The notes under the pieces: model-generated
Databases searched by the model: none
What the model was told of the DNA's origin: nothing
Seen by the model: the letters and a program-made list of their open reading frames with translations, nothing else
Part shown: positions 19,219 through 24,498 of the stretch, one piece after another
Layout: every line of letters begins with the position of its first letter
Numbering within the stretch: the first letter of the stretch is position 1
Assembly (NCBI GenBank): GCA_035715245.1
Contig: DASTLG010000023.1
Coordinates: forward strand, 1 to 26,582
Direction: 5' to 3'
DNA length: 26,582 nt
DNA from: Patescibacteria group bacterium
GTDB taxonomy: Bacteria > Patescibacteriota > Patescibacteriia > 2-12-FULL-60-25
Made by a program: the position numbers and the translations under genes

Positions 19219-20061
19219 ATGAAAGATCAGAAAATTCTTTCGTTTCCGTTTCTGCAGGAACCGCGGAAACAGCGGACGGCTTTTTCTCGACGGGAATCAG
19301 AAGCGACAAAAGTTATTCGCGAGCCGCGTCAGGCAAGATTTATTCCGAATGAAAAACCGGCGGATTTTTTTCTCCATCATCGCGATCAGCTCACCGCCTA
19401 TCTGGCGCAGGCAGAACCAAAACGGATCCCGAACGGATCCTGGCTCGCGCGCGAACCACTGACGGAAGATGAAAAATTCATTCTGTTACATCCGGGAAAT
19501 CCATCCATGTGGAAAATCGAAGCGCGACTTTTGGCCGAACTCAACCAAGCAAAAACCGATGAAGACACAAAAAAAGCTGATGACATCCGCCGCCTCATTT
19601 ATTGCGCCCATCATCGTCTACAAATAAAACACCCGCATCTGACCAAATCTTTTTTTGAACGATTACGGAAAAACGTCGTTACCGCGGAACAAAAAAGAAT
19701 CAATAGCCTTCCCTACGAGGAGCAGGAAACAAAACACGAATGGCAGGAAGCGCTCAGGGAAACAGAACAGGGGTTACAAACAATCGAACAAGTATTTAAG
19801 CGTCATCAATTTCATGAAACCGTACGCGAGGCACTGGAGATTGTCGAAGCATATGTTGAAGAATCATGGAAAAATTTGGAGCGGCTTATTCCAAATTTTG
19901 ATGAGCTTAAAAAGCAGTACGAAATCTTTCTCGAAGAGCAGGAGCAAACACATCAAAAACCGCGCGCGTCCGAACACGATCAACTACAAAAAACTCTGCG
20001 GTCGATTTTTGATTGGTGTTCCATCCGAGATCAATTTATCTATCAGCTGCTGGTCGACTAA
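19219..20061 (+). CDS. Hypothetical all-helical protein, paralogue A of a tandem pair
   Basis: Start placed at ATG 19219, 4 nt after the era stop; shares motifs with the next gene. Confidence 0.75.
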   Translation: MKDQKILSFPFLQEPRKQRTAFSRRESEATKVIREPRQARFIPNEKPADFFLHHRDQLTAYLAQAEPKRIPNGSWLAREPLTEDEKFILLHPGNPSMWKIEARLLAELNQAKTDEDTKKADDIRRLIYCAHHRLQIKHPHLTKSFFERLRKNVVTAEQKRINSLPYEEQETKHEWQEALRETEQGLQTIEQVFKRHQFHETVREALEIVEAYVEESWKNLERLIPNFDELKKQYEIFLEEQEQTHQKPRASEHDQLQKTLRSIFDWCSIRDQFIYQLLVD

Positions 20062-20065
20062 TAAT

Positions 20066-20734
20066 ATGGCGTCGCCCCTTTTGTTTCCGCATGTGGCCAC
20101 GCTTGAACAGGTTTATGCGTACCTCAAAGGAACCTATCATCTGCCAAAAGAAGGCGAACCGATTTTTTTTGAAGCGGCAGAAACTTCTTGGTTTCATGCT
20201 GGGCTTTGGAAAATCGAACAGATCCTCTTAAACGATCTTGAACGCGCAAAGGACGCACAGGATGAACAGCAAAATTTTCTTCGCGGCCTCATTCGCGCGG
20301 TAAGCTGGCGAACCTACGATCATATGACCACGACGGCGTTAAAGCGGTCGGCGCATGTCTTTTTGAATCAATCAAAAATACAAACCAATTCACAAGAGAC
20401 ACGGATTTTCGCGGAGATAATCAACGTGCTGGAAAAAAATTTAACTGGATCCTCTGCCATTCCTGCGCTAAATGCGATTGAAGGATTCGTCGATCGCATG
20501 TGGAAACGTCTGGAATTCTACCTGGAAGAATCAAAGACTTCGTGGGAAGACCTGGCGCAAACGCTTTTGACAGAGCCCGAAAAACCTCTGAACACAAAAA
20601 AGGCGAAAGCGAAGGAAATAAATGAGGTCATCACCACACTTAAGCAACTGAGACCAATCCGCGATCAGATTTATTTTCAGGTTCTTTATCCGGAATGGCT
20701 CACGTCATCACAAATTAAGGCTAATTCTAAATAA
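20066..20734 (+). CDS. Hypothetical all-helical protein, paralogue B of a tandem pair
   Basis: Start placed at ATG 20066 (MASPLLFPH), 4 nt after the paralogue A stop; the ORF-track extension to 19655 overlaps A and is rejected. Confidence 0.75.
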   Translation: MASPLLFPHVATLEQVYAYLKGTYHLPKEGEPIFFEAAETSWFHAGLWKIEQILLNDLERAKDAQDEQQNFLRGLIRAVSWRTYDHMTTTALKRSAHVFLNQSKIQTNSQETRIFAEIINVLEKNLTGSSAIPALNAIEGFVDRMWKRLEFYLEESKTSWEDLAQTLLTEPEKPLNTKKAKAKEINEVITTLKQLRPIRDQIYFQVLYPEWLTSSQIKANSK

Positions 20735-20765
20735 AATAACTGACTCAACCGAGCGGGAAATAGCC

Positions 20766-20794
20766 TTGACAAACGGCGAAAAAACTGCCAAGGT
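20766..20794 (+). promoter_or_regulatory. Putative promoter of the ABC operon
   Basis: Perfect TTGACA-N17-CAAGGT with TG-c before the -10. Confidence 0.45.
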
Positions 20795-20872
20795 AGCGCC
20801 TTGCTCTTTTTAGTTTTAAAAAGTCCAAAAAGCGTTACAGGTGCGTTCATGGTTCCGTACAAGGAGGACCCG

Positions 20873-22723
20873 ATGCCCACGTCCCGCCTCACGCCTCTCG
20901 CAAAGGGATTCATTACCGTTGTCATTCTTGCCGTGGTCGGCATCTTTGCCTGGCACTTCGGCTGGTTCGCGAAGTTCTTCCCGGATCGCGCCGAGCAATC
21001 GGCGATCATTCCGCAGAAGATCGATCTGCCGCAGGTCAAGGACGCCGTCGCCAAGAACGCAATCCCGGCGGTTTCCATGCCCGGCCAGAAGCCCGGATGC
21101 GCGGATCGGCCCGAGATCCGTCAGCTGGTGTGGGCCTGGAATTCGCAAATGGGCAAGATGTTCGCCACCGGCGGCTCGCAGGCCACCGAGGGCAGTCTCA
21201 TGTGCACGCACGGCGTGAACCTTAAACTCATCCGGCAGGACGATTCCAGCCAGATGCAGGCCATGCTCGTGAAGTTCGCGACCATGCTGAAGAAGGGCGA
21301 TCCAAATCCCAGCGAAGGCGCGCACTTCGTCTCCATCATGGGTGACGGGGCTGCACAATTTCTCCAGGGACTGAATCCCACGCTCGCAAAGCTCGGACCC
21401 GAATACACGGCCGAGATCATCGGCTCGTCCGGGTACTCCCGCGGCGAAGACAAGTTCATGGGACCGGTTGCCTGGCTGCCGCCGAATTCTGCCGCCGCGC
21501 GCGGCGGTCTCGTGGCCGGCGTCCTGCGCGACGGCGATTGGAACATCGCCATCAAGTGGATCGCGGACAACGGTCTTTGCAACAATCCGGACGAAAAGGT
21601 CTTCGATCCGAATTGCGTGAATTGGCTCGCCGCGAACGATTACGTGGACGCCGCACAGAAGTACGTGGCACACGCGTGCGAAGAACGGCCGGTCGTGGTA
21701 ATCGACCCGGGGACAAAGAAGTACAAGAAGACCGGCGAGACACGTCAGGTTTGTGTGGATGGCGTGGTCACGTGGACGCCTGGCGACGTGATCGTCGCAA
21801 AGAAGCGCGGCGGCCTCGTCTCGATCGTCTCCACCAAGCTGAACAACGGTCAGATGCCGGAAGTCATGATCGGTATCCGCAAGTGGAATCGCGAGCACAG
21901 CGACGTCGTGAAGAACATGCTCGCCGCGATCCTCGAGGGCGGAGACCAAGTTCTGCATTACGAGAACGCGCTTCGGCGCGCCGCATTCGTGAGCAACATG
22001 GTCTACGCCGAAAAGGACACGGATCCCGACTACTGGCTCCGCTACTACAAGGGAACCACCGAGATCGATGCCACGGGCCTGCAAGTCGAGCTGGGCGGCA
22101 GCAAGGCCAATAACCTGGCAGACGATCTGTTCCTCTTTGGCCTCTCCCCTGGCTCTGGTGGCGAGGCCGCTAGCACGTTCGTGGCGACGTATACCCAGTT
22201 CGGGAATTACGCCCATGAGAATTACCCGCAGTTGATTCCCACATTCCCGCCGGCAAAGAACGTTCTCAACCTGTCGTACCTGCGGCAGGTCGCGGCCGAA
22301 CAACCGACGGCAAGCACCGCTGAGGTCCCGACCTTCGCCGCGGCAGACAGCGGTCCGCTCGTCGAAGTCGGCCGCCGTGCCTGGAACATCAACTTCGACA
22401 CCGGAAAGGCGACGTTCTCGAAGAGCGCCGAGCGACAGCTCGAAGAGCTCTACCAGGGCCTCGTCGTTTCCGGCAACACGGTCATCGTGATCCACGGGCA
22501 CACCGACAACGTCGGGACGCCGAAGAAGAACCGCGATCTTTCCGAGGCGCGCGCCTTCGCGGTAAAGCATTACCTCGAGACCCGTGCGCCCAAGATCTTC
22601 CCGACCGGCCGCATCAGGCCTCCGATCGCGCACGGCGACAGCGAGCCGCTCGAGCCGAACACCACGGCCGATGGCCGCGCCAAGAACCGGCGCGTCGAGA
22701 TCGTGATCGGCGAAAACAAGTAG
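20873..22723 (+). CDS. Membrane-anchored ABC substrate-binding protein (SsuA/NMT1-like fold inferred) fused to a C-terminal OmpA-like peptidoglycan-binding domain
   Basis: SD AAGGAGG before ATG 20873; N-terminal TM helix; binding-protein-like motifs SRGEDKF, TWTPGD, MPEVMIG; OmpA-C motifs INFDTG, IHGHTDNVG, LSEARAFAV, AHGDSEP, GRAKNRRVEI; followed by a permease and an ATPase. Confidence 0.88.
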   Translation: MPTSRLTPLAKGFITVVILAVVGIFAWHFGWFAKFFPDRAEQSAIIPQKIDLPQVKDAVAKNAIPAVSMPGQKPGCADRPEIRQLVWAWNSQMGKMFATGGSQATEGSLMCTHGVNLKLIRQDDSSQMQAMLVKFATMLKKGDPNPSEGAHFVSIMGDGAAQFLQGLNPTLAKLGPEYTAEIIGSSGYSRGEDKFMGPVAWLPPNSAAARGGLVAGVLRDGDWNIAIKWIADNGLCNNPDEKVFDPNCVNWLAANDYVDAAQKYVAHACEERPVVVIDPGTKKYKKTGETRQVCVDGVVTWTPGDVIVAKKRGGLVSIVSTKLNNGQMPEVMIGIRKWNREHSDVVKNMLAAILEGGDQVLHYENALRRAAFVSNMVYAEKDTDPDYWLRYYKGTTEIDATGLQVELGGSKANNLADDLFLFGLSPGSGGEAASTFVATYTQFGNYAHENYPQLIPTFPPAKNVLNLSYLRQVAAEQPTASTAEVPTFAAADSGPLVEVGRRAWNINFDTGKATFSKSAERQLEELYQGLVVSGNTVIVIHGHTDNVGTPKKNRDLSEARAFAVKHYLETRAPKIFPTGRIRPPIAHGDSEPLEPNTTADGRAKNRRVEIVIGENK

Positions 22724-22740
22724 GTAGTTCTTTTCCTTTC

Positions 22741-22773
22741 GCCCGACTCTTAGGCAATGCCTAGGAGTCGGGC
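22741..22773 (+). other. Strong intercistronic RNA hairpin (15 bp) after the substrate-binding protein gene
   Basis: gcccgactcttaggc-aat-gcctaggagtcgggc, with one G-U pair. Confidence 0.75.
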
Positions 22774-22850
22774 ACATTTCTTTCCATCTTTTTTAAAAAG
22801 GCTGAGAGAAATGCGTTCTGCAGTGGACCTTAAAAAACGAGGTGGATCAA

Positions 22851-23642
22851 ATGAAATTCCTCGACGCCTTCAAACCGTTCGCGATGATTTCACGAAACAC
22901 GTTGCGAATTGTCGCGTTTGGCTGCGCGGCTCTCGCCATCCTGGTTTGGTATACTGGCGCGCCGAGCGTGATTCCCCGGCCGTTCGAAGTGATCCAGGCA
23001 TTCAAACGGCTCTGGTTCGAGGAAGGACTGAGCCGAGATCTGGGATCGAGCCTGTATCTGAACGTGGAAGCCTTGTTCTGGACCGCGCTCATCTCGCTCA
23101 CCCTTTCCTATCTCGTCATCGTGCCGTTCTTCCGGCCCTTGGTCGTCTTCTTTTCAAAGCTCCGATTCCTCGGACCAACCGGCGTCGTGTTCATCTTCAC
23201 CCTCATCGTCGGCGGCGGCCATCCGCTCAAGGTTTGGATGCTTGTCTTTGGGATGAGTGTATTCTTCGTTACTTCCATGGCAACCGTCGTTCTCTCCGTT
23301 TCGGAAGACGAACTCAATCACGCTCGGACGCTCAGAATGAGCGAATGGCGCGTGGCGTGGGAAGTGATCATTCTCGGAACCCGAGCGCGTGCCTTCGAAG
23401 TCTTTCAGGATGTGGCGGCCATGGGATGGATGATGCTCACCATGGTCGAAGGCCTTTCGCGAAGTGAGGGCGGCCTCGGCGCCGTTCTCTTGAATCAAAA
23501 TAAGCGCCTGCGTCTGGACAGCGTGTTCGCCGTGATGACTCTTGTTGTCATCATTGGTCTGCTTCAAGACGTTTTGATCGGCAAGGCCAGGCGCTGGGCC
23601 TGTCCCTATGCTGATCTCCGGCTCGCAAGGAGGGCGTCATGA
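22851..23642 (+). CDS. ABC transporter permease, NitT/TauT/SsuC-like
   Basis: SD GAGGTG 6 nt before ATG 22851; about 6 TM helices; EAA-like loop EDELNHARTLRMSEWRVAWEVII; WMMLTMVEGLSRSEGGLG. Confidence 0.88.
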   Translation: MKFLDAFKPFAMISRNTLRIVAFGCAALAILVWYTGAPSVIPRPFEVIQAFKRLWFEEGLSRDLGSSLYLNVEALFWTALISLTLSYLVIVPFFRPLVVFFSKLRFLGPTGVVFIFTLIVGGGHPLKVWMLVFGMSVFFVTSMATVVLSVSEDELNHARTLRMSEWRVAWEVIILGTRARAFEVFQDVAAMGWMMLTMVEGLSRSEGGLGAVLLNQNKRLRLDSVFAVMTLVVIIGLLQDVLIGKARRWACPYADLRLARRAS

Positions 23643-24466
23643 CGCCGATTCCTTATGACATGCGAGAAGTTCTCCTCAGCATCAACCACGTGAGTCATTC
23701 ATTTCAGGATCGCGTGGTTCTGCGGGATGTGAACGGAGTGATCCGCAACGTTCACCGCGACCACATAAACCAAGGACAAGTGGTTGCCCTTCTCGGCCCG
23801 TCCGGCCTTGGGAAAACCACTCTGCTCCATGTTCTCGCCGGCCTTCTTCGGCCGAGCTCCGGCCAGGTGCTTATCACCGAAGCTCAGCGGCCGATCAAAC
23901 GAGGAGAAGTCGGCGTGGTAACGCAGGAATGCCGGCTATTCCAGCATCGAACCGTACGACAAAATTTGTATCTTGCCGCGCGTCTCGCGAAGATGAGCCG
24001 TGATGACGCAAAAAATAAGACGGCCTATTATCTCGATTTGTTTCACATGACGGCACACGCTGAAGCATACCCGGTTCAGCTTTCCGGTGGACAACGCCAA
24101 CGTGTTGCTATTGCACAGCAATTATTGTGCAGCAGCTACTTCCTCTTAATGGACGAACCGTTCTCAGGCTTGGACGTCAACGTCAAGGAAGAAGTCTGTC
24201 AGCTGATTACTGAGGTGGCACAGCTCGATGAGTTAAAAACAATTATCGTGGTCACGCATGACACACGTGCCGCGATTCAAGTCGCGGACACGATCTGGCT
24301 CCTCGGCCGCGATCGAACGCCAGCCGGCGAAATTATTCCCGGCGCTCGCATTATGGATGAGATCGATCTCAAGGCGCGCGGACTTGCCTGGCAGCCGAAT
24401 CTAAAACAGCTGCCGGAATTTGAAACGTGCGTCCGTGAAATTGAGGCGCGCTTCAAGAATCTCTGA
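23639..24466 (+). CDS. ABC transporter ATP-binding protein, NitT/TauT/SsuB-like
   Basis: Walker A GPSGLGKTT, signature LSGGQRQR, Walker B LLMDEP, H-loop VTHD; ATGA overlap with the permease; SD AAGGAGG. Confidence 0.93.
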   Translation: MTPIPYDMREVLLSINHVSHSFQDRVVLRDVNGVIRNVHRDHINQGQVVALLGPSGLGKTTLLHVLAGLLRPSSGQVLITEAQRPIKRGEVGVVTQECRLFQHRTVRQNLYLAARLAKMSRDDAKNKTAYYLDLFHMTAHAEAYPVQLSGGQRQRVAIAQQLLCSSYFLLMDEPFSGLDVNVKEEVCQLITEVAQLDELKTIIVVTHDTRAAIQVADTIWLLGRDRTPAGEIIPGARIMDEIDLKARGLAWQPNLKQLPEFETCVREIEARFKNL

Positions 24467-24473
24467 TATTTTT

Positions 24474-24498
24474 CCAGCGGTGATCCGCTGGTTTTTTT
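24474..24498 (+). terminator. Intrinsic terminator of the ABC operon
   Basis: ccagcgg-tgat-ccgctgg followed by T7. Confidence 0.85.

Follow-up and report, generated by a model that had tools for sequence, protein, structure and literature searches.

What is the role of a solute receptor that carries both its own membrane anchor and a peptidoglycan-binding OmpA-like domain in the strongly reduced genome of a Patescibacterium? The question is raised by a three-gene operon (positions 20873-24466, + strand) in contig DASTLG010000023.1, a stretch of 26,582 nucleotides that was analysed in full, is called the window below, and to which all coordinates refer. The operon encodes the receptor, the permease and the ATPase of an ATP-binding cassette (ABC) system, and the initial annotation, made from the sequence without database searches, had singled it out as the best candidate for an undescribed system in the window. 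Our analysis identifies it as a horizontally acquired insertion of ~3.8 kb in an Uhrbacteria-like Patescibacterium, and its fused receptor as the standard form of a large family, not peculiar to this genome. What is new is a partnerless copy in an unusual host, the architecture and the family themselves being already known. We consider it probable that this copy is, or was until recently, a functional ABC system of the importer type, which has been kept because its receptor has its own anchors.

Inspection of the open reading frames (ORFs) and of the sequence revealed three co-oriented genes, all of them intact, with no frameshift or premature stop in the 3.5 kb of the operon. The island, the genes and the domains of the first gene product (in amino acids, aa) are located as follows:

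20735-24496, + strand: inserted island, from the stop codon of helB (20734) to the stop codon of a native 373-aa gene (24497, minus strand)
20873-22723, + strand: gene 1, binding protein of 616 aa with a signal anchor and a fused OmpA-like domain (P0001)
20906-20971, + strand: N-terminal hydrophobic signal-anchor helix, predicted, aa 12-33 (sequence; helix 8-28 in the AlphaFold2, AF2, model)
21056-22312, + strand: predicted class II binding-protein domain, aa 62-480, containing the six Cys and matched by no Pfam model (AF2, VIA-align, Foldseek)
22313-22363, + strand: Ala/Thr/Pro-rich interdomain linker, aa 481-497 (sequence; predicted local distance difference test score, pLDDT, <50 at 486-501)
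22364-22720, + strand: OmpA-like peptidoglycan-binding domain, aa 498-616, with Asp545 and Arg560 (PF00691, alignments, Foldseek)
22851-23642, + strand: gene 2, permease of 263 aa, an orthologue of the other permeases in the family
23639-24466, + strand: gene 3, ABC ATPase, 275 aa, with the Shine-Dalgarno sequence AAGGAGG at 23627-23633

The layout originally proposed for the gene 1 product, i.e. a transmembrane (TM) anchor, a binding domain with six Cys, an Ala/Thr/Pro linker and a C-terminal OmpA domain, is present at these positions.

The middle part of the gene 1 product (aa 62-490) has no Pfam or NCBIfam match up to E 0.1 (including NMT1), PDB sequence searches match the OmpA part only, and a profile search reaches only THI5, with E 0.17. 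Its structure was modelled with AF2 (431 residues, alignment of 55 diverse relatives; pLDDT 96.3, predicted TM-score, pTM, 0.93), and comparison of the model with known structures by VIA-align identified TauA as the best match (6ssy, Z 26.9, 290 residues, root-mean-square deviation 3.4), followed by CmpA, NrtA and the receptor-like regulatory domains of CmpC/NrtC (Z 23-25), SsuA (Z 22-23), and THI5 and ThiY (Z ~21), the matches to TauA, CmpA, NrtA and SsuA extending over 285-337 residues. Foldseek concurs on a TauA/CmpA/NrtA-type fold, with E-values of 1e-10. The sequence identity to the TauA/CmpA/NrtA/SsuA/THI5 class is 8-13%, and the domain is ~130 residues longer than TauA, including a long β-hairpin insert. 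As modelled, the middle domain is an extracytoplasmic two-lobe binding protein with a fold nearest to TauA, SsuA, NrtA, CmpA and THI5, in agreement with the NitT/TauT-type binding fold that had been expected.

The binding domain is flanked by two putative anchors. At the N-terminus, a basic stretch precedes a 22-residue hydrophobic segment (aa 12-33; helix at 8-28 in AF2), no small-x-small cleavage site follows, and the helix is most simply read as an uncleaved signal anchor in the cytoplasmic membrane. Next comes a flexible spacer of ~27 residues (35-61), modelled with low confidence, in which Pro37, Leu52 and Pro53 are invariant among close relatives. At the C-terminus, PF00691 covers aa 508-606 with 61.4 bits (cut-off 27.2), the nearest sequence matches are TagL (5m38, E 8e-15) and OprF, and the fold resembles those of OprF, TagL and A. 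baumannii OmpA (Foldseek TM-score by target, TMt, 0.77-0.83). The full-length AF2 model (pLDDT 70, with poor interdomain regions) was used for this domain and the N-terminal helix only. The HGHTD (Asp545), LSEARA (Arg560) and NRRVE motifs line up with their counterparts in TagL, OprF and PA0833, and Asp545 and Arg560 are invariant in 26 sequences, so the domain is a complete module that keeps the Asp of GHTD and the Arg of LSEARA, as had been noticed from the sequence. In OmpA-like domains, the conserved Asp (GHTD) and Arg (LSxxRA) contact the stem peptide of peptidoglycan. As a separate observation, fragments of deeper contigs (depth up to 48) in all four soil sequencing runs match the most conserved part of the OmpA domain (22386-22699); these are OmpA-like genes of other organisms, not variants of the locus.

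The gene 1 product contains exactly six Cys residues (76, 111, 236, 248, 269 and 294), all in the middle domain and invariant across 25 close homologues, which probably form three disulfides that stabilise the binding domain. The formation of such disulfides in this host is plausible, given the four DsbA-like genes in its genome; VKOR was not found there. Family-wide conserved residues include, in lobe I, Trp87/Trp89/Asn90, Asp123/Asp124 and Met156-Gly-Asp158, and, in lobe II, Tyr188-Ser189, Glu192-Asp193, Asp220/Asp222-Trp223-Asn224, Asn250-Trp251 and Trp301-Thr-Pro-Gly-Asp305. They are located at the strand ends and helix starts that make up the ligand site of the TauA/CmpA/NrtA fold, and they suggest a cationic or polar ligand, such as an organic amine, a metal or metal-bound anion, or a polyol. 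Since the cleft is rich in conserved Trp, Tyr, Asp and Glu, a plain oxyanion is disfavoured, and the acidic and aromatic cleft argues against free nitrate, bicarbonate or sulfonate as the ligand. CmpA, for comparison, binds bicarbonate together with Ca2+. The earlier expectation of an anion or a pyrimidine precursor is at odds with these residues; the accompanying statement that fusions of a solute-binding protein (SBP) with OmpA have no characterised ligand agrees with our literature search, which found no characterised SBP-OmpA importer or ligand.

The remaining two genes complete the transporter. The ATPase (P0003) is confidently recognised by Pfam ABC_tran (E 7.6e-30) and has all its motifs intact: GPSGLGKT (Walker A), LSGGQRQR, LLMDEP (Walker B) and VTHD (H-loop). 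An ARTLRM..W..V loop, a candidate for the EAA-type coupling loop, is conserved between the permease and its orthologues. Its family matches are weak and confined to SaoP, NtrB and TauC, and the NitT/TauT permease models are not reached (NtrB 17.3 bits against a cut-off of 209, TauC 12.5 bits against a cut-off of 342).

Is the combination of these three proteins peculiar to the window? Sequence searches revealed more than 2,800 full-length homologues of the receptor, of ~600 residues, all with PF00691. An exhaustive search with the middle domain only gave 473 clusters at 50% identity, nearly all of 575-650 aa, along with a few unfused forms of ~445 residues, one of them lipoprotein-like. In a scan of one genome per species the family was found in at least 503 species genomes, the best 80 of which include Acidobacteriota (Thermoanaerobaculia, Bryobacterales, Holophagales, Vicinamibacteria), Myxococcota and Armatimonadota/Abditibacteriota. 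The TM anchor-periplasmic binding protein-OmpA architecture is the ancestral form in diderm phyla and has not evolved in an epibiont. In ~70 of the 80 best bacterial loci the receptor adjoins orthologues of the window permease and ATPase. Most of these 80 loci additionally encode a coiled-coil protein of ~300-346 residues that is membrane-anchored and gives a faint Snf7 signal, and 25 of them show the arrangement typical of Bryobacterales/Solibacterales, with a 237-aa protein, PspA and an AAA+ ATPase. In full, the latter is a seven-gene block (237-aa protein, PspA, receptor-OmpA, permease, ATPase, TM + Snf7-like protein, 571-aa AAA+ ATPase), seen at L002:4508-12080, L015, L022, L025, L029 and other loci, which resembles an ESCRT-III/Vps4-like set linked to a transporter. 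Some bacterial loci are also devoid of detectable partners.

The set of a PBPB+OmpA protein, a permease and an ABC ATPase was noted computationally in PspA/TM-Snf7/AAA+ operons by Ravi et al. (2024, mSystems, PMC11237479), who give it two sentences. The triad, being on record there and present in at least 503 species genomes, can no longer be called an undescribed system. The survey of gene neighbourhoods and taxa, phages included, upheld a conserved triad in bacteria and in viral contigs, and did away with the uniqueness of the fusion.

The viral branch of the family is sizeable. IMG/VR contains 50 contigs with a relative of the receptor, 48 of them with a full-length one (identity 34-51%, locus GC content 0.27-0.64); many of these contigs are 140-530 kb long, with many above 200 kb. 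The order receptor, permease, ATPase is kept in all 48 full-length loci, and the triad has the identical order in a GenBank 'uncultured phage' record (LR756500.1, 462 kb). Directly upstream of the receptor, 44 of the 48 viral loci carry a 346-aa membrane-anchored PspA-like gene, which in 42 of the 48 is itself preceded by a gene for a ~223-aa coiled-coil protein; the same pair is also found in Polyangiaceae. These partners were detected with iterated profiles seeded from a viral locus, hidden Markov models (HMMs) built from the acidobacterial partners having given no match there. Among five viral records examined, PF04012 has one match, 73 kb away from the operon; direct terminal repeats are present in two of the five and CheckV reports 100% completeness for three. 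The Pfam models Terminase_6N and Terminase_6C have no match in these five records, and tail-sheath matches are below threshold. In one contig (L089) the module lies among genes for a primase, a clamp loader, a 5'-3' exonuclease and a sigma factor. The viral status of the carriers is based mainly on the IMG/VR and CheckV classification, on these replication genes and on the GenBank phage record. Complete ABC systems have also been described beside 15 huge-phage PspA genes (2026 preprint, bioRxiv 10.64898/2026.10.24.761521).

The company kept by the receptor raises the possibility that the system is an envelope-stress or membrane-remodelling device, in which the receptor would detect a molecule derived from the wall or the membrane, or else the distance from membrane to wall, and the ABC parts would be coupled to PspA/ESCRT-III-like partners, the device being crippled or repurposed in the window. 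It would account for the tight linkage with PspA, TM-Snf7-like and AAA+ proteins in bacteria and for the PspA-like gene in 44 of 48 viral loci, it fits the ABC systems next to huge-phage PspA genes, and a link between membrane remodelling and solute transport is proposed by Ravi et al. (2024). However, the canonical parts of an importer have been kept, namely the closed two-lobe receptor fold, the conserved putative coupling loop of the permease and the full set of ATPase motifs, partnerless bacterial loci exist, and there is no sensor output domain. We therefore regard a stress device as unlikely, and return to the importer.

How did the triad come to be in this genome? The host (0.98 Mb, 90.6% complete, 2.4% estimated contamination) is indeed a Patescibacterium, as had been assumed, its Der GTPase sharing up to 73% identity with proteins that bear the name Candidatus Uhrbacteria or Patescibacteria. 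The operon has a GC content of 0.60 vs 0.47 in its surroundings, with a local range of 0.55-0.68 inside the island and 0.42-0.47 outside. The GC content at third codon positions (GC3) is 0.81 in the receptor gene, 0.70 in the permease gene and 0.58 in the ATPase gene, compared to 0.43-0.53 in native genes; this stepwise drop along the island could reflect uneven amelioration or a mosaic origin. No full-length match was found in 40 relatives, including six congeners, or in 400 genomes drawn evenly from the phylum. The sole other match in the latter, a weak and partial one to the profile of the binding domain (G034:C1:67325-67576, L006; E 2e-9, 84 profile positions, 557-aa frame), is probably a different binding protein.

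The empty site is preserved in three congeners: there, helB and the 373-aa gene have homologues that face each other as convergent neighbours with 12-50 nt between them, and the flanks keep the trmA-era-...-bcp-sod order. Per-run contigs of three soil samples from one study cross both junctions of the island with zero differences and at the depth of the flanks. No repeats of 8 nt or more (target-site duplication or inverted) were found at the island borders, and neither an integrase among the scanned ORFs of the window nor phage genes at the borders. The sharp GC step, the closest relatives in other phyla and the estimated contamination of the bin might point to an assembly chimera or a binning error. 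Against this stand the native genes on both sides within the 26.6-kb contig, the junctions bridged in three samples and the flanks syntenic with three congeners, and an artefact is hardly credible. Two side observations concern a congener and other contigs of the host genome: in one congener (L139, G002:C43:1865-2938) the homologue of the 373-aa gene reads through one in-frame TGA, and contigs C24, C74, C98, C133, C137 and C159 of the host genome contain further 3-kb stretches with GC >0.56 (genome mean 0.49), some of which may be rRNA and others further foreign islands.

The donor was sought in a tree of 128 receptor sequences, the bacterial part of which consists of the 80 sequences with the highest similarity to the query; the apparent nesting of bacteria within viral diversity should for this reason not be over-read. 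The window receptor branches at the unresolved base of a clade (Shimodaira-Hasegawa-like approximate likelihood ratio test, SH-aLRT, 99) of 80 bacterial sequences and one viral sequence, which adjoins the stem leading to the other viral sequences; the tree does not discriminate between a bacterial and a viral donor. The highest identity to the window receptor among 5.8 billion proteins is 57%, which means that the donor is unsampled.

The signals around the genes bear on whether the island can be expressed:

20766-20771, + strand: exact TTGACA hexamer, a possible -35 element without a matching -10 (sequence)
20789-20803, + strand: short hairpin followed by CTCTTTTT, terminator-like, in the interval between helB and gene 1 (signal scan)
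20861-20867, + strand: Shine-Dalgarno sequence AAGGAGG of gene 1, 5 nt before the ATG
22741-22773, + strand: stem-loop between genes 1 and 2 (signal scan)
24474-24498, + strand: intrinsic-terminator-like 7-bp GC-rich hairpin followed by T7 (signal scan, sequence)

Gene 2 most likely starts at the ATG at 22851, preceded by GAGGTGG at 22839-22845, a start favoured over the GTG at 22842, and the start of gene 3 overlaps the stop of gene 2 via ATGA. The stem-loop at 22741-22773 has a perfect 15-bp stem with 10 GC pairs, a 3-nt loop and a T-rich tail, and lies in the AT-rich spacer of 127 nt between genes 1 and 2; it could act as a partial terminator, or stabilise the mRNA, and thereby favour an excess of the binding protein. 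Of the complete operon first described, with promoter, Shine-Dalgarno sequences and terminator, the genes, the Shine-Dalgarno sequences and the terminator-like hairpin stand, and the promoter is the one element that was not confirmed. This internal hairpin, the foreign origin, the absent PspA-like partners and the phage connection had all been overlooked at that stage.

The partners themselves are missing. Six partner profiles and Pfam PspA_IM30 (PF04012) have no match in the window or in the rest of the 90.6%-complete genome. A fourth gene was sought among counterparts of the TM + coiled-coil proteins of acidobacterial loci (P0123, P0124), and neither BLAST nor HMM searches found one in the window. 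The products of helA and helB were considered as disguised PspA-like partners and rejected: BLAST, Pfam, the partner HMMs and two ESM Atlas look-ups show no likeness, and both genes are native, being present in the congeners too. The helical pair at 19219-20734 (helB and its neighbour) is native and fast-evolving, with helB directly downstream of era in the congeners at 28-38% identity; one locus (L146) holds a second, weaker helB-like match next to the helB homologue.

The importer that we prefer, of the binding-protein-dependent (type I) class, would operate as follows. The N-terminal helix would hold the receptor in the cytoplasmic membrane, a flexible segment would lead to the binding domain, and the Ala/Thr/Pro linker would lead on to the OmpA-like domain with its stem-peptide-holding residues. 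The captured solute would be passed to a homodimeric permease of the six-helix class, with energy supplied by the ATPase, and the strong hairpin after gene 1 may raise the ratio of receptor to membrane parts. The operon is the transporter half of a cassette common in Acidobacteriota, Myxococcota, Armatimonadota and very large phage contigs, which entered recently between helB and the 373-aa gene without the PspA-like/Snf7-like half. Because the receptor carries its own anchors, neither a lipoprotein pathway nor an outer membrane would be needed, and the system should work without a periplasm.

A number of observations weigh against a working importer. As to expression, no acceptable -10 element lies 16-18 nt 3' of the TTGACA at 20766-20771, the promoter scan gave no + strand site upstream of gene 1, the terminator-like hairpin separates this gene from helB, and no RNA run is listed among the sequencing runs that contain the stretch. 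As to the proteins, the permease scores 16.5 bits with PF00528 (BPD_transp_1), below the cut-off of 26.4, and its best NCBIfam match, SaoP (E 4.6e-7), is far under the cut-off; the terminal branch of the window receptor is long (0.59 vs a median of 0.2); and the ligand class has been read from residue conservation and secondary-structure position, not from model coordinates. The partners, near-universal elsewhere, are absent here, so that the operon may be incomplete for its native role. As to the wall, the host MurE (L149:714-1940, contig C134) carries EDPY in place of the DNPR motif found in ligases that add diaminopimelic acid (DAP), compared to DNPR in the DAP ligase of M. tuberculosis and DDPR in the lysine ligase of T. 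maritima. The host wall may therefore differ from the DAP type to which OmpA-like domains are known to bind, and the third residue of its stem peptide may be neither DAP nor of the usual Lys type. The gene 1 product has the one OmpA-like domain of the host genome, and only 3 of 200 further genomes from the phylum were found to encode such a domain. Because of the EDPY motif and of this rarity, wall binding in this host is doubtful.

The same MurE motif lends some support to a variant put forward in the initial annotation, according to which the OmpA-like domain grips the wall of a host bacterium and the system is a contact-dependent scavenger: the DAP-type wall of another cell would in principle be the better ligand, and Patescibacteria are often epibionts. 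Yet free-living diderm phyla and phages have the same layout as their ancestral form, and it arrived here by insertion, which means that epibiosis did not shape it; the OmpA domain is separated by a linker of just 17 residues from the membrane-anchored domain and can hardly cross the cell's own wall and surface layers; and nothing in the island is specific for attachment. A grip on a host wall is unnecessary and geometrically unlikely, and we consider it very improbable.

Could the island instead be recent passenger DNA, silent or decaying, and intact merely for lack of time? Its foreign composition (GC3 up to 0.81), the lack of a consensus promoter and the hairpin upstream are what would be expected in such a case, as are the absence from all congeners searched, the missing partners and a wall anchor possibly mismatched to the wall of the host. 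On the other hand, there are no frameshifts or stops, the strong Shine-Dalgarno sequences, the ATGA junction, the catalytic motifs and the family-invariant residues are kept, and the sequence is identical, at flank depth, in three samples. Moreover, genomes of 1 Mb that undergo strong reduction seldom retain DNA of no use. Silent passenger DNA is in our view distinctly unlikely, and a functional or recently functional importer is the reading that we retain.

A bolder version of this reading can be formulated, in which the triad is a self-sufficient, envelope-independent 'plug-in' importer for diderm, monoderm-like and phage-infected cells alike, captured here, possibly from a phage, and importing a membrane- or wall-relevant cation without PspA-like partners. 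We offer it as a conjecture, with rather low odds as it stands. If true, it would explain why the triad is carried by huge phages of very different hosts (GC 0.25-0.64), and the partners would be dispensable for transport.

Whichever version holds, the cassette is among the more widespread uncharacterised transport modules, its carriers being at least 503 species-level genomes from soil phyla and ~50 viral contigs of very large size. The window copy shows that the transporter genes can be transferred and maintained in the absence of the PspA-like half, and that they can enter a cell type without an outer membrane, with hardly any OmpA-like domains in its phylum and probably with a non-DAP wall. 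The empty site in the sister genomes makes this a clear-cut example of a gene gain in a genome reduced to 1 Mb. If expressed and active, the triad would offer the smallest system for identifying the ligand and the purpose of the wall tether.

Among known systems, the closest are the operons of Ravi et al. (2024, PMC11237479). They contain the same triad, with Acidobacteriota orthologues 52-57% identical to the window receptor in such operons, and they differ in their PspA-like, TM-Snf7-like, 237-aa and AAA+ genes, none of which is present in the window or in the genome. The phage module consists of five genes (coiled-coil protein, membrane-anchored PspA-like protein, receptor-OmpA, permease, ATPase), of which the window shares the last three in the same order, with the fused receptor at 31-51% identity; the window lacks the two upstream genes, which 42-44 of the 48 viral loci possess, and no phage genes flank its operon. 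TauABC/SsuABC of E. coli and NrtABCD/CmpABCD of Synechocystis provide the best structural matches of the binding domain, with the permease weakly similar to SaoP, NtrB and TauC. The TauA-class receptors differ in sequence (8-13% identity, with no NMT1 match in the window protein), and the window domain is larger and tethered by a putative TM helix and an OmpA domain. CmpA and NrtA are tethered receptors too, being lipoproteins. Other fusions of NMT1 with OmpA embody the same idea (ESM Atlas clusters from Myxococcota and Bacteroidota, and Verrucomicrobiota receptors of the 'urea carboxylase-related ABC transporter'; TM-score by query 0.72-0.73), but they are recognised by Pfam NMT1/NMT1_2 and have 508-575 aa, whereas the window family is unrecognised by these models and forms its own Atlas cluster (TM 0.95). 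Finally, the predicted topology, with an N-terminal membrane anchor and a C-terminal OmpA-like wall anchor, is shared with proteins of the MotB, TagL (TssL extension) and YiaD type, from which the window receptor differs by the insertion of a full solute-binding domain between the two anchors and by its coupling to ABC genes.

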